Origin: Balanoglossus misakiensis
Lineage: Eukaryota; Animalia; Hemichordata
NCBI GenBank assembly: GCA_040954595.2
Contig: CM082598.2
Location: forward strand, 7,889,097 to 7,953,096
Direction of reading: 5' to 3'
DNA length: 64,000 nt
The position numbers were made by a program, and so were the translations under genes. The notes under the pieces are model-generated. The model searched no databases, had not been told where the DNA came from, and was given only the letters and a program-made list of their open reading frames with translations. Numbering within the stretch: the first letter of the stretch is position 1; each line of letters begins with the position of its first letter. This document shows, in pieces, positions 46,793 to 62,284 of the stretch.

Positions 46793-47829
46793 ACTGTCTG
46801 AGGCATTGTCAGACTGGTTAGGGAGTCGTCATGATTTATGGCCTTCATCACGGATACCACAACAGCCTTCCATTTCGTGACTCGCCAAGAAGAAATCAAA
46901 GACCGTTGATAACACATCAAAATGCGTTGCCCTACTCTCCTTCATTAGAAATTGCAACTTTGAAATTTCACATTGGATCCATGTCTTCTCTTAAGTAGTT
47001 GGGGCAATAAAATCAAAATTTCCGCAAACAGTGTTATCCCCCCCCCCCCTCTGCGGACAGTGTTATCCTCCCCTCTCCCTGGGGCATATTACAACCCCTG
47101 ATGCTTAAAGGAATTTAAAATAAATACATAAAGAGTTGGCTCGATGAACTGTACTGCGATATTGTCTGTACATTTCTTCTTTTTCATTTTAAATACAAAT
47201 AAGGTGACCATCAATACAAGGTGGAAATTTGAGTTTGCAATGATGGAAGTGGTTGTGAAGATGTGTCATCAAGTGTGTCGCAGTCAGCCCGAACGCAGGT
47301 CAGCAATTTCACTGTAATTGCCAAGGTTTCTAGTTCTGGTGACGCCCTCAACGTTCTGTCATACACGCAACTGAAAGTGGCATGCGAAAGTCCCGCGCTT
47401 GTTTAATGCCAAGTTAACAAGCAAGGACGGCAGTTGAATGACTCAAATTGATAAAATGGCCAAAATCACATCTGAACTACACATCTGTGTGGTTTTTTGT
47501 TGGAAAAACATGTTTTCTTTGCAGAAAATAGCGACTTACAGAATGACCCCAGAACAACTAAAATCAAAACATGCCGTACTTCAGGGTTTTTACGGACTGC
47601 CGCACTTTTATTTAAAAAGAATTTTTAAGTTTAGATATAATTTTCACTAAAATCGATATATTGTGTAACAAAATTAAAACAAATCACGATGCAACCCCCA
47701 GAGGTCTTCGCTCAAGCGCTCGATCCTTTTAAATTCAGCCCGGATGGTGACGCAACAGCCTCAGTGTAGCTCATAGCTGTGCACGTAATTGTATGGAAAG
47801 CCATAACTGCCTTAAGTGAACTGAACTCA

Positions 47830-49072
47830 TGTTCTCTTGTGTATTTAACATGTTGTCTTGTACATTTAATATGTTGTCTTGTGCATTTCATATATGGTCC
47901 TGTGCATTTAACATGTTGTCTTGTGCATTTCATATATGGTCCTGCGCATTTAACATATTGTCTTGTGCATTTTATATTGTCTTGTGCATTTAACATGTTT
48001 TCTTGTGCATTTATGTATGCTGTCTTGTACATTTAACATGTTGTCCTGTGCATTTCTATATGTTGTCTTGTCCATTCATATACGTTGTCTTGTGCATTTC
48101 TATATGTTGTTGTGTGACTTTAATATGTTGTCCTGTTCATTTCTATATGTTGTCTTATTTATATACGTTGTCTTGTGCATTTCTATATGTTGTTGTGTGA
48201 CTTTAATATGTTGTCCTGTTCATTTCTATATGTTGTCTTGTTTATTTATATACGTTGTCTTGTGCATTTCTATATGTTGTCTTGTCCATTCATATATGTT
48301 GTGGTGTGCCTTTAACATGTTGTCCTGTTCATTTTTATATGTTGTCTTGTCCATTCATATACGTTGTCTTGTCCATTCATATATGTTGTGGTGTGCCTTT
48401 AACATGTTGTCCTGTTTATTTCTATATGTTGTCTTGTCCATTCATATATGTTGTGGTGTGCCTTTAACATGTTTTCCTGTGCATTTCTATATGTTGTCTT
48501 GTCCATTCATATACGTTGTCTTGTCCATTCATATTGGTTGTCTTGTCCATTCCTAGACATTGTCTTGTGCATTTCTATATGTTGGTGTGCCTTTAACATG
48601 TTTTCCTGTTCATTTCTATATGTTGTCGTGTGCCTTTAACATGTTGTCCTGTTCGTTTCTATATGTTGTCTTGTCCATTCATATACATTGTCTTGTGCAT
48701 TTCTATATGTTGTCTTGTCCATTCATATACGTTGTCTTGTCCATTCATATACATTGTCTTGTACATTTCTATATGTTTTCGTGTGCCTTTTACATGTTGT
48801 CCTGTTCATTTCTATATGTTGTCTTGTTTATTTATATACGTTGTCTTGTGCATTTCTATATGTTGTCTTGTCCATTTATATATGTTGTCCTGTTCATTTC
48901 TATATGTTGTCTTGTTTATTTATATACGTTGTCCTGTTCATTTCTATATGTTGTCTTGTCCATTTATATATGTTGTCTTGTGCATTTCTATATGTTGTCT
49001 TGTCCATTTATATACGTTGTCTTGTCCATTCATATTGGTTGTCTTGTCCATTCATATACGTTGTCTTGTGCT
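47830..49072 (+). repeat. Left subterminal array of ~21-bp units (~59 units)
   Basis: Variants of tgtgcatttaacatgttgtct / tgtgcatttctatatgttgtct / tgtccattcatatacgttgtct. Confidence 0.95.
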
Positions 49073-49183
49073 TGTGGTGTTTTATAATGATTATCAAAGT
49101 ATATACCATAATGCAACAGTATGAGCATGCTCAGTAGATTTTTACATAATAACACGCAAGAAAGATAGCGTTGAAGAGGTATC

Positions 49184-50542
49184 ATGGCATCTATGAGAGA
49201 CATTCTAGAAAGTCTACAAATGGGGAATCTCAGTGACAACTTTGAGAGTGAAAAGGTAACACCAGAATTAGTGTGTAAACTTTCTGTGCCAGAACTGGAG
49301 GAGCTTGGTCTTCAAAACAGGGCAGACATGATGGCATTACGTATTGCGTGCACCACAAGTGGAGGGGAAACTCCAACAAAAGCCCATGGATTATATGGTG
49401 GTGCTCCAGAATTTGTCATTCCCAAATGCATCTTAGAACATTTTTTTGATGAAGGATTCACAGTTACTGAAGTGGCATCTATGTTATCTGTTTCGGAGCG
49501 TACTATTTACCGCAGAATGATGCATTATGGGCTGAGTAAGATGAATTTCTCTGATATCTCTGATGGTGACCTGGATGATAATGTACAGCAACTGACAGTG
49601 GAATTCCCTTATTGTGGTGAAAATATGATCAAGTATATGTTGCAAGAAAAGGGAATTAAAGTCCAACGGATGAGGCTCCGTGATAGTATCCACAGGGTAG
49701 ATGCTGAGGGTGTTAATTCCAGAAGAAAAGGTCGTTTACAAAGACGTGTCTACAATGTGAAGGGACCAAATCACTTATGGCATATTGATACCAACCATAA
49801 GTTAATTAGATGGCATTTTGTGATATTTGGGGGCATTGATGGCTTCAGTAGACTACCTGTCATCCTATCCTGCAGCAACAACAATAAGGCACCCACATTG
49901 CTGGAATACTTCAAGTCCGGTGTTGAGAATTTTGGTCTTCCCAGTCGTGTAAGGTCTGACATGGGTCGTGAAAATATACTGATAGCTGAGTATATGATTG
50001 AGAGACGGGGACCCAACAGGGGAAGCATGATTACAGGCAAAAGTGTGCATAATCAGAGGATTGAACGATTATGGAAAGATGTGTATGAAGGTGTTCTGAG
50101 CCTTTACTACCAACTATTTTACTTCATGGAAGAAAGAGGTGTACTTGACCCACTGAATGTACTGCACATTGCAGCTCTTCACTATGTGTTCATGCCTAAA
50201 ATAAATGAAAAGTTAGAAATCTGGAGGAAAGCTTGGGCTCGACATCGTATGCGTACAACAAAGACATCACCTCTGCGTTTGTGGATATCTGGACAGATGA
50301 ATGATCCAGTTGGTATTGATGACTCTGACATTGGTTTGTATGGAGTAGAGGGTGTCATCAATGATGATTCAGAGGAGACAGACTCGCGACCAATCATCGA
50401 GCCACCATCATTTCAAATGGGTCAACAGTGTATGGATGCACTATCTCAGCACATATTACCAAACTGGACATCAGACAACTATGGCATTGACATTTATAAT
50501 ATAGCAGTTCAAATCATACAGGACAATGCTGATCAAAATTAG
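49184..50542 (+). CDS. IS3EU DDE transposase (452 aa): N-terminal SAM-like domain, HTH, integrase core
   Basis: Intact single ORF. SAM-like [60 protein letters not shown]; catalytic [20 protein letters not shown]. Confidence 0.93.
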
Positions 50543-60174: not shown

Positions 60175-60414
60175 GATGATGATGACAGGATACAATGTCC
60201 CTGTGCGAACACGCGTGCTTGTCTTAGTGCTACAGATTTTCCCTCTCTTTTTCACCGGATGTACATTGTAAATGTATCAAATATTTTGGGAGACTGCAGG
60301 CCACAGTCTATTTATAGCTGTGAAAACAAAACTGTTCCGCCAGGGGGAGGATACCGCCCTCCCGGAACAGCTTGATCTTCTTCTAATGAAGTTAATCTTC
60401 TTCTAATGAAGTTA

Positions 60415-61520
60415 AATGCACCACACAACATGTACAAAACCACAGGACAACATATAGAAATGCACAAGACAACGTATATGAATGGACAAGACAACATATA
60501 GAAATGCACAAGACAATGTATATGAATGGACAAGACAACATATAGAAACGAACAGGACAACATGTTAAAGGCACACGACAACATATAGAAATGAACAGGA
60601 AAACATGTTAAAGGCACACCAACATATAGAAATGCACAATGTCTAGGAATGGACAAGACAACCAATATGAATGGACAAGACAACATATATGAATGGACAA
60701 GACAACATATAGAAATGAACAGGACAACATGTTAAAGGCACACGAAAACATATAGAAATGTACAAGACAATGTATATGAATGGACAAGACAACGTATATG
60801 AATGGACAAGACAACATATAGAAATGAACAGGACAACATATTAAAGTCACACGACAACATATAGAAATGCGCAAGACAGCATATAGAAATGCACAGGAAA
60901 ACATATTAAAGGCACACCACAACATATATGAATGGACAAGATAACATATAGAAATGAACAGGACAACATGTTAAAGGCACACGAAAACATATAGAAATGT
61001 ACAAGACAGTGTATATGAATGGACAAGACAACATATAGAAATGAACAGGACAACATATTAAAGGCACACCACAACATATATGAATGGACAAGACAACATA
61101 TAGAAATGCACAAGACAACGTATATGAATGGACAAGACAACATATAGAAATGCACAGGACAACATGTTAAATGTACAAGACAGCGTGTATGAATGCACAA
61201 GACAACATGTTAAATGGACAGGACAGCATACATAAATGCACAAGAAAACATGTTAAATGCACAAGACAATATGAAATGCACAAGACAACATGTTAAATGC
61301 GCAGGACCATATATGAAATGCACAAGACAACATGTTAAATGCACAGGACCATATATGAAATGCACAAGACAACATGTTAAATGCACAGGACCATATATGA
61401 AATGCACAAGAAAACATGTTAAATGCACAGGACCATATATGAAATGCACGAGAAAACATGTTAAATGCACAAGAAAACATGTTAAATGTACAAGACAACA
61501 TGTTAAATGCACAAGAGAAC
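60415..61520 (-). repeat. Right subterminal array of ~21-bp units (~52 units), inverted relative to the left array
   Basis: Reverse-complement variants: agacaacatgttaaatgcaca, agacaacatatagaaatgcaca, agacaacgtatatgaatggaca. Confidence 0.95.
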
Positions 61521-62284
61521 ATGAGTTCAGTTCACTTAAGGCAGTTATGGCTTTCCATATAATTGGCCGGGTTGTATCGTCGACGTCGAACTGTTGCTCT
61601 ACAGAATCTGCAATAATCAAATTTGCATTGTGTCGAAATTGGCTAGCACTTTCGCTGTGTTTTAGCGTATAAATCTTGTACTGCCCCTATCCCCCCGTAT
61701 TGATCAGTTTGTGGAGAGTGAAAGGCTAAGTCACAGGGGGGCCTAGTTGAGGATTTCCCTCGTACCACCATAGACGGTCAGTCTGTGTTATGTGTAACAG
61801 AATCCTGATCAGAAATTGCAAAAGCTTGTTATCAATAAACACAACTTCAATCATTTCTGTACGTTTGACACTATTCTCAAGTCTTCAAAATATGAATCAC
61901 TGTGGCAATCAAGATGTGCCGCGGACATACCTGCATGTACACAGTGTCCGTAGCTCTGCATGGCAGCTGGGGCTTTGTGTGTACGTCTGCGGTAATAAGA
62001 CACGCAGCCCCGCCAAGCAGAGCTAACAGTGCCCGTAGCACTCGACCGTAGCATCGGCAATAATGCACTGAAAATTGACATTGCAAATCGTAGAAATATA
62101 TGTGTAGGAGCAGAGTCATGCACAGTTTTACAGTCAGATACGCTAATTTATTTATTTTATTATAAAAAAAAACTTCTAAAATATCCAAGAAAGTATAGCT
62201 AAGTTTCATGATCACTGGACAAAACAAATCGCGCAGTCTACATTGTGTACACTGGGTGCCCCTGCACGATTCGTGGAAGTCGAG

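Follow-up and report, generated by a model that had tools for sequence, protein, structure and literature searches.

A 64,000-nucleotide stretch of the genome of the hemichordate Balanoglossus misakiensis (the window, to which all positions given here refer) contains a 13,768-bp DNA transposon at 47792-61559 (GC 37.6%) that is, by each sequence feature tested, a member of the IS3EU/GingerRoot group. Convergent to its transposase gene the element carries a spliced second gene, open reading frame 2 (ORF2), for an enzyme derived from HECT ubiquitin ligases, and this gene is very probably a core partner of the transposase. We propose, with a probability of roughly 45%, that this shortened HECT enzyme, inherited along with the transposase, docks onto that protein and would attach ubiquitin to it or to its neighbours at the element ends. 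A first-pass annotation of the window, made from its sequence, had described a transposon encoding a multi-domain HECT ligase; SAM domains on both proteins, the shortening of the HECT domain and inverted subterminal arrays of 1.1-1.2 kb go beyond it. The features of the element, including its terminal inverted repeats (TIRs) and target-site duplication (TSD), are as follows.

47786-47791, unstranded: left TSD, TAATTG (end comparison; one hexamer at the empty site)
47792-47841, plus strand: left TIR, 50 bp, perfect, starting TATGG (end comparison)
47829-49071, plus strand: left subterminal tandem array, 21/22-bp unit, ~58 copies, 1.24 kb (repeat scan)
49193-50542, plus strand: transposase, 449 aa, single exon, with SAM domain (aa 1-56), helix-turn-helix (HTH) and DD34E core (Pfam, profiles, alignment)
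49193-49360, plus strand: transposase SAM domain, mid-loop face conserved, end-helix face non-canonical (hidden Markov model (HMM), conservation)
51333-51684, unstranded: small repeat resembling a miniature inverted-repeat transposable element (MITE), between both genes (very high contig depth)
52002-52261, minus strand: ORF2 exon 6, HECT C-lobe, catalytic Cys622 (codon 52118-52116), Phe656 at -4, stop
53649-53826, minus strand: ORF2 exon 5, N-lobe end, hinge, C-lobe start
54174-54319, minus strand: ORF2 exon 4, in which ~54248-54219 is a short loop replacing the small E2-binding subdomain of other HECTs
55673-55802, minus strand: ORF2 exon 3, HECT N-lobe helix with the GGPR motif
57036-57386, minus strand: ORF2 exon 2, last part of the acidic linker, a pair of pre-HECT helices, N-lobe start
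59260-60174, minus strand: ORF2 exon 1, SAM, basic stretch, ubiquitin-like domain, CCHC finger, acidic linker
60174-60007, minus strand: ORF2 SAM domain, aa 1-56 (Pfam)
Within exon 1, about aa 115-222, minus strand: ORF2 ubiquitin-like domain (AlphaFold2 (AF2) and Foldseek)
59451-59392, minus strand: ORF2 CCHC finger, aa 242-261 (spacing, weak Pfam match)
60309-60316, minus strand: TATA-like box by consensus match only, 135 nt ahead of the ORF2 start
60414-61522, minus strand: right subterminal tandem array, ~52 copies, 1.11 kb, inverse of the left array (repeat scan)
61510-61559, minus strand: right TIR, 50 bp, perfect (end comparison)
61560-61565, unstranded: right TSD, TAATTG (end comparison; empty site)

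Comparison of the termini confirmed the complete element, with a 50-bp perfect TIR and a 6-bp TSD, that had been described. The two termini (TATGG...CCATA) first differ at base 51, TAATTG directly flanks both ends, and the terminal 20-mer is found just once on each strand of the whole window. A chance origin of the TIR and TSD was rejected. The TIRs run on into inverted tandem arrays of 21/22-bp units, a feature missed in the first reading; such arrays are present in 4 of 4 complete relatives scanned, with units that differ from those of the window element, and are likely transposase-binding sites. High-copy small repeats are nested between and inside the genes (51333-51684, 52323-52495, 54572-54613 and 57374-59258), the second and third being pieces related to the MITE-like repeat that lie in ORF2 introns. 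Because of these nested repeats the window element is about twice the size of its relatives, which span 6-10 kb.

That the element is mobile follows from public DNA of three runs, X1-X3, that represent one sample from one study. A 321-nt contig from X1 matches 61563-61713 with zero differences, and at its loose 5' end 28 of the 30 letters shown are those of the left flank, 47759-47788, with a single target hexamer. This contig is an empty insertion site, and a contig piece from X2 begins at the same base. Both genes are nevertheless covered by contigs of the X1-X3 sample, at even depth and with few differences, so the element is present elsewhere in that sample; among the contigs of X1, none was placed on the TIR itself. 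In X1 the repeat-free parts of both genes have a contig depth of ~240-260 compared with 62-87 for long flank contigs, which, depth not being copy number, is a hint of several element copies. Since an empty site exists in a public DNA run, both genes moved together: the element inserted recently and is mobile as one unit, and the copy in the window is insertion-polymorphic.

The transposase, which had been called intact, is one 449-aa open frame with a complete catalytic triad (D199 in 103/103, D256 in 103/103 and E291 in 102/103 aligned sequences). It matches Pfam rva_4 (PF24764) with an E value of 4.8e-77, its HTH matches are weak, and a Pfam scan found no integrase zinc finger (HHCC) upstream of the core. 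Its relatives number 2,006 at E <= 1e-20, and those named among the 120 matches listed come from corals and bivalves. Membership of IS3EU, for which the available text of PMC10045372 gives TA..TA termini and a 6-bp TSD as the definition, was borne out by both of these features, by the IS3/IS481-like DDE core and by the likeness to IS3EU-1_SK, to which the core is identical at 57 of 76 positions (counted by eye, from the available part of the PMC10045372 supplement). No relative of either the transposase or the ORF2 protein was found among viral contigs.

ORF2 occupies six exons on the minus strand, joined by five GT-AG introns, and its 1980 nt encode 659 aa plus a stop with no internal stop. 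Across junctions 2-5 every one of the 21 relatives with an alignment of 500 aa or more lacks gaps, and the gene model is therefore real, with splicing supported by homology; junction 1, which sits in a variable linker, is gap-free in 11 of these 21. The convergent and intact six-exon gene of the first-pass annotation thus has its junctions backed by relatives. HMMER retrieved 1,172 relatives of exon 1, 49 of them at E <= 1e-30, and 59 of the best 150 extend into the C-terminal part; a word-index search with exon 1 among longer proteins, which came back empty, was an artefact. Searching with the HECT half of a relative brought up 167 proteins, the named ones of which belong to bivalves, corals, one hydrozoan, one crinoid and hemichordates. 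The closest relative, P0287 from Ptychodera, is 45.7% identical over its full length, and three eukaryotic clusters in the ESM Atlas match at 0.88, which is a lead only.

Co-occurrence of the two genes, proposed as a check in the first-pass annotation, was surveyed in 80 transposase-anchored metagenome loci, 37 of which are testable in that they extend at least 1,400 nt downstream. A HECT C-lobe lies on the opposite strand within 5 kb downstream in 30 of the 37 testable loci and on the same strand downstream in none, as judged with a C-lobe HMM partly seeded from the tested loci; independently of that HMM, 8 loci pass the Pfam HECT cut-off and 4 more match below it. The positive loci represent 22 families at 85% transposase identity, and a HECT gene accompanies 5 of 7 SAM-type transposases with at least 700 nt downstream. 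Six complete relatives (L015, L044, L046, L054, L056 and L079) have both genes between TATGG TIRs, with 6-bp TSDs. Transposase and C-lobe distances are correlated across 23 families including that of the window (Spearman 0.61, Mantel p 1e-4), in a comparison of short fragments among kin that are not independent. Starting from HECT-anchored contigs, transposase sequence was found within ~1.5 kb in 3 of 4 testable cases, two more contigs being too short, and the layouts in these three are convergent (a weak remnant), head-to-head and tandem.

These data, together with the empty site, bear out the two-component mobile system of the first reading, and a one-off host capture was rejected on the empty site, the co-occurrence in 30/37 loci, the six complete relatives and the co-divergence. 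The broader possibility that a host HECT gene was captured once and has since been a passenger without function has a precedent of sorts, in that GingerRoot elements capture gene fragments (PMC6839031, available text). It is very improbable and largely refuted by the co-occurrence, the co-divergence and the conserved catalytic residues, as well as by nearly identical ORF2-type copies that occupy several loci each in Antedon, Argopecten and Hydractinia and by the fact that 0 of 17 listed differences to run X1 fall in ORF2 exons 2-5 (P 0.035, the listing being incomplete).

Several of the loci have unusual arrangements. The head-to-head and tandem gene layouts (L083:3227-11774 and L085:6672-12645) are on intron-containing, animal-like contigs filed in prokaryotic metagenome-assembled genomes. 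In three AT-rich, fungus-like IS3EU loci (L065:395-11170, L071:1280-5641 and L036:7964-10827) a HECT-like gene precedes the transposase on the same strand, and in L065 a TET/JBP gene (E 1e-10) lies between the two. A Ulp1-like peptidase frame (L034:14165-15070, minus strand; weak Pfam match, E 0.0013) stands beside a rearranged IS3EU copy.

The HECT assignment of the ORF2 product proved right for the C-lobe. This scores 34.8 bits against PF00632 (cut-off 23.9), the catalytic Cys622 is kept in 111/120 relatives (7 gaps), and an aromatic residue at -4 (Phe656; Phe or Tyr) in 107/120 (8 gaps). An aromatic residue at this position is a HECT requirement according to the title of a reference in the available part of PMC13196369. 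Across relatives of 40-55% identity the catalytic Cys, the -4 aromatic, the C-lobe motifs and GGPR are kept in ~90-99%. It needed correction for the N-lobe, where the domain is ~60-90 residues shorter than canonical HECTs and a small-subdomain segment is missing. The interval from the QNG helix to the DGL helix is 33 residues in the window protein and 28-36 in 118 of 118 relatives, compared with 99-101 in three long-type transposon HECTs; between matched blocks the profile positions number 137 versus 229 in AREL1 and 142 versus 224 in E6AP, 82-92 short. The AF2 model of P0287 (mean predicted local distance difference test (pLDDT) score 82) has no strand or beta-hairpin between residues 443 and 565, and it aligns with HUWE1 at Z 21.1 and a root-mean-square deviation of 3.1 Å over 269 residues, 305 model residues spanning 383.

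We take the small subdomain to be alpha6-8 and beta5-6, the deletion having been mapped there by residue spans and general knowledge rather than by a residue-level structural alignment. In the available text of PMC3077247 the small N-lobe subdomain with its beta5-beta6 hairpin hosts the site for the ubiquitin-conjugating enzyme (E2), although one passage there says the large subdomain. The idea that an overlooked exon makes the HECT short was rejected, since the gap falls inside exon 4 and is common to independently annotated proteins. L001 is the only locus in which the deletion can be seen directly, and the 'short HECT' labels on our tree were set by hand from C-lobe similarity; for L050, a long-type, single-exon HECT, there was no PDB match and a weak C-lobe profile match, and the deletion was not mappable residue by residue. 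By sequence and model, the ORF2 enzyme is HECT-derived and not a canonical HECT, and because a segment at the E2-binding subdomain is missing, ordinary ligase activity is not to be assumed.

Loss of the E2 site could mean that the protein is a non-catalytic adaptor, serving as a scaffold subunit of the transposase for nuclear import, assembly or stability, much like the Myb/SANT protein of Harbinger. The E2-binding segment is absent in all 118 relatives measured, in 86 of 120 relatives the residue two positions ahead of the catalytic Cys is Asn in place of His, and human and mouse G2E3 are reported to have a non-functional HECT (PMC3673628, available text). We nevertheless consider an adaptor quite unlikely, as the retention of Cys, -4 aromatic, C-lobe and GGPR motifs at the frequencies given above is unexpected for a dead enzyme. 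The ORF2 product is instead predicted, with somewhat better than even prospects, to be an active thioester enzyme.

The predicted contact between the two proteins involves their N-termini. The SAM domain that had been claimed for ORF2 scores above both Pfam cut-offs (SAM_1 25.0 versus 23, SAM_2 25.9 versus 20.5), and the ORF2-type SAM has five helices with pLDDT of 95+ in the AF2 model of P0287. The N-termini of the transposase and ORF2 protein are 35% identical over 54 aa (E 5e-6); the single transposase sequence has no Pfam SAM match, and an HMM of ORF2 SAMs matches 110 of 120 transposase relatives. The transposase SAM resembles those of Bicc1, ANKS6 and tankyrase (tankyrase E 1.8e-4), with a match that ends before helix 5. 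Transposase SAMs keep the mid-loop region and lack the Gly that canonically opens helix 5, whereas ligase SAMs keep the end-helix motif and vary in the mid-loop, the mid-loop/end-helix entropies being 1.26/2.14 bits in transposases versus 2.23/1.30 in ligases. This asymmetry ranks 8-13 of 1,260 block pairs and is stable after thinning, with a permutation p of ~1.5e-4 that is optimistic, the faces having been set by position from general knowledge after the conservation table had been viewed. A mid-loop/end-helix contact is the common mode of SAM-SAM binding (PMC2755476, available text). Because homologous SAM domains on the two proteins conserve opposite, complementary faces, SAM-SAM docking is predicted, and the ligase probably binds the transposase in this way.

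In a quick tree the SAM transposases form one group of 17 rows (SH-aLRT 100) apart from 61 rows without SAM; the group comprises 16 loci, 14 of them SAM-positive and two lacking the N-terminus. Six non-SAM transposases that were inspected (L015, L040, L044, L054, L056 and L079; ~9700-10000, plus strand) begin with 70-100 aa that are acidic, amphipathic and helical-looking. Loss of this acidic region and loss of the HECT N-lobe segment fell in one lineage, and the two parts may have formed an ancestral contact of both proteins. In a sponge-like, ~11.6-kb family the transposase is without SAM and an ORF2-type SAM fragment is present (L040:17499-17621, minus strand; also L041, L043 and L064), which suggests that the ligase gained its SAM before the transposase did.

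The same family would fit an enzyme aimed at the host. An active ligase could target a host silencing or restriction protein, possibly one that itself bears a SAM domain gripped by the end-helix face of the ligase, with the transposase SAM serving to co-localise. The ligase SAM profile strongly matches host SAMs (Bicc1 at E 2e-9, also ANKS6, tankyrase and SHANK), and fungal IS3EU elements carry TET/JBP dioxygenases proposed to be anti-silencing cargo (PMC12730594, available text), as does L065 between its HECT-like gene and transposase. Co-divergence with the transposase and the complementary conservation of the SAM faces fit an internal partner better, however, and the enzyme is kept across cnidarians, molluscs, echinoderms and hemichordates and is not host-specific; counter-silencing is in our view unlikely, if still a serious contender.

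The remaining N-terminal domains of ORF2 bear on a role in choosing target sites. The ubiquitin-like domain proposed in the first-pass annotation is supported by modelling, which gives a beta-grasp fold (pLDDT 94) with SAP18, the ubiquitin-like domain of USP7, RBD, FERM and PB1 as top Foldseek rows (best E 1.4e-3, none below 1e-3). A ubiquitin-binding zinc finger (UBZ) had also been called. The UBZ4 pattern is C-x2-C-x11-H-x3-C with a conserved Asp; the ORF2 CCHC finger has this spacing (Pfam zf_C2HC_14, 23.5 bits, below the cut-off of 25) and the Asp two residues before the last Cys is present in the window copy, but in 143 relatives the eight residues most often found here do not include Asp, so that the spacing stands and the conservation does not. 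The SUMO-interacting motif matches in the window copy and had to be given up as a family feature, with SIM-like motifs in 2 of 59 relatives' linkers against 0.5 expected. The finger and the ubiquitin-like domain might read ubiquitinated chromatin or replication and repair proteins and so anchor the transpososome to them, or the ligase might open target chromatin. The UBZ4-type spacing with its Asp in the window copy and a beta-grasp fold of the RBD/PB1/UBX interaction type are consistent with such target-site selection, which is rendered improbable by the variability of the Asp and by the TSDs of seven complete elements, which share no common motif.

Our preferred reading remains that the ORF2 enzyme acts on its own transposase, and we infer that it assists transposition. 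Of the three functions offered in the first-pass annotation (remodelling the transpososome, degrading host silencing factors and targeting insertion), the first is favoured by the paired SAM domains, which give it indirect support. We propose that the end-helix face of the ligase SAM, as its conservation suggests, would bind the mid-loop face of the transposase SAM, and that the transposase, assembling on the subterminal arrays, would bring the ligase to the element ends. Ubiquitin would be received by a non-canonical route, possibly through the ubiquitin-like domain or the pre-HECT helices. The ubiquitin tag might then lead host p97/proteasome to clear a stable post-integration complex, by analogy with ClpX on MuA, or might cap transposase levels. 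Placing the substrate of the ligase at the transpososome is tentative, at a little less than even chances. The fullest version, a SAM-locked pair in which a SAM has replaced the N-terminal helical domain of the transposase, a mini-HECT without E2 subdomain is charged by a route novel among eukaryotic HECTs and acts on the transpososome, and the unassigned G2E3-like animal HECTs are transposon genes, is possible and on the whole rather doubtful.

Several points weigh against the preferred reading. Besides the partial seeding of the C-lobe HMM and the after-the-fact choice of SAM faces, a single assembly series supplied 19 of the 37 testable loci and every one of the six complete relatives, and 7 of the 37 have no downstream C-lobe. 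Of these seven, L034 retains just pieces of the N-lobe, L049 probably does not extend far enough and L036 has a HECT-like frame upstream, and in L016, L019, L055 and L062 no HECT gene was seen; likewise one of the four testable HECT-anchored loci has no transposase within 4.2 kb downstream. The E2-binding small-subdomain segment is missing in the window protein and in 118/118 relatives, which makes standard charging by an E2 doubtful. Given the family of L040, L041, L043 and L064, a ligase SAM can exist without a transposase SAM as partner. Finally, plant GingerRoot elements are described without such a gene in the available text of PMC6839031, and the HECT gene may therefore not be needed for transposition.

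Partner proteins and ubiquitin-related functions have parallels among other DNA transposons. In PIF/Harbinger elements a Myb/SANT protein is the partner of the transposase; in the Ulp1-bearing Mutator and Zisupton elements, and in RAG1 with its RING, a ubiquitin- or SUMO-pathway domain is tied to the transposase; and MuA with host ClpX is a case in which a stable transpososome needs dismantling. We know of no two-protein or enzyme-carrying DNA transposon that encodes a thioester-forming HECT-type enzyme as a separate gene. IS3EU elements themselves have been described as encoding two proteins (PMC10853768, available text), Repbase entries for them list 1p and 2p proteins (available part of the PMC10045372 supplement), and although their listing with a second protein goes back more than ten years, functional work on them is scarce (PMC11934779, available text). 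The IS3EU/GingerRoot superfamily, in which the nearest entry found is IS3EU-1_SK from an acorn worm, shares termini, TSD, DDE core and the two proteins with the window element, and the published descriptions, in the parts available, do not give the HECT identity of the second protein, the SAM domains or the shortened HECT. The word 'HECT' is absent from PMC10045372 and PMC12730594 (supplements included), PMC6839031, PMC10853768, PMC5718144, PMC11934779, PMC4255032 and the main text of bioRxiv 2021.09.26.461848; no link between IS3EU and HECT was found in the available literature, PMC11353290 and PMC9547173 included, and Repbase entry texts may name the domain.

Closest in layout are the rust-fungal IS3EU elements (PMC12730594, available text), with the same TAYGG..CCRTA ends, a 6-bp TSD and the gene of a protein-modifying enzyme opposite to the transposase; the partner there is an alpha-kinase, with TET/JBP genes in addition, and neither 'HECT' nor 'ubiquitin' occurs in that text or supplement. 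Compared with the HECT ligases HUWE1, Smurf1, UBR5, AREL1 and E6AP, the ORF2 enzyme shares the bilobal fold, a GGPR-type N-lobe motif, the C-lobe PxxxTC and the -4 Phe, and it differs in its shorter N-lobe, its SAM/ubiquitin-like/CCHC N-terminus and its location in a transposon. The class IV HECTs G2E3, GL-Metazoa and GL-Bikonta are likewise fast-evolving and poorly classified animal HECTs in the available text of PMC3673628, from which the string 'transpos' is absent. For the predicted docking, the pairs Ship2-EphA2/Arap3 (PMC2755476, available text) and ANKS3-ANKS6 (PDB 4nl9) similarly take the mid-loop from one partner and the end-helix from the other, and both SAMs of the element resemble this class, whereas here the putative partners are the transposase and ligase of one mobile element.

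The window contains further repeats and one recognizable host gene. PIF/Harbinger-type transposase pieces (DDE_Tnp_4 E 2.4e-25, HTH_Tnp_4) lie at 7844-9049 on the minus strand, and a tandem array of 14 copies of a 122-bp unit, 96% alike, at 12603-14314. An exon of a Mediator subunit 25 gene (20785-21177, minus strand; Med25_VWA E 1e-12) indicates that the element may be in or near this host gene. A 4.6-kb foldback element follows at 21212-25837, with arms 97-99% complementary, internal repeats of ~364 bp and a duplicated inverted ORF fragment that has no Pfam match. At 28364-31887 on the minus strand a 957-aa frame and an adjoining 229-aa frame, transposase-like by appearance, also have no Pfam match, and a MITE-like element with 383-bp arms, 99% complementary, is located at 45603-46682.

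A conserved HECT-type enzyme as the second protein of IS3EU ties cut-and-paste transposition to the ubiquitin system and makes the dismantling or throttling of eukaryotic transpososomes testable, for which the intact, insertion-polymorphic copy described here is a good one to reconstitute. More than 100 HECTs without the E2-docking segment but with the catalytic Cys either point to a new mechanism of charging or serve as an instructive deletion made by nature. Where molluscs, corals, echinoderms or hemichordates have multi-copy genes annotated as 'HECT-type E3', these probably belong to transposons.

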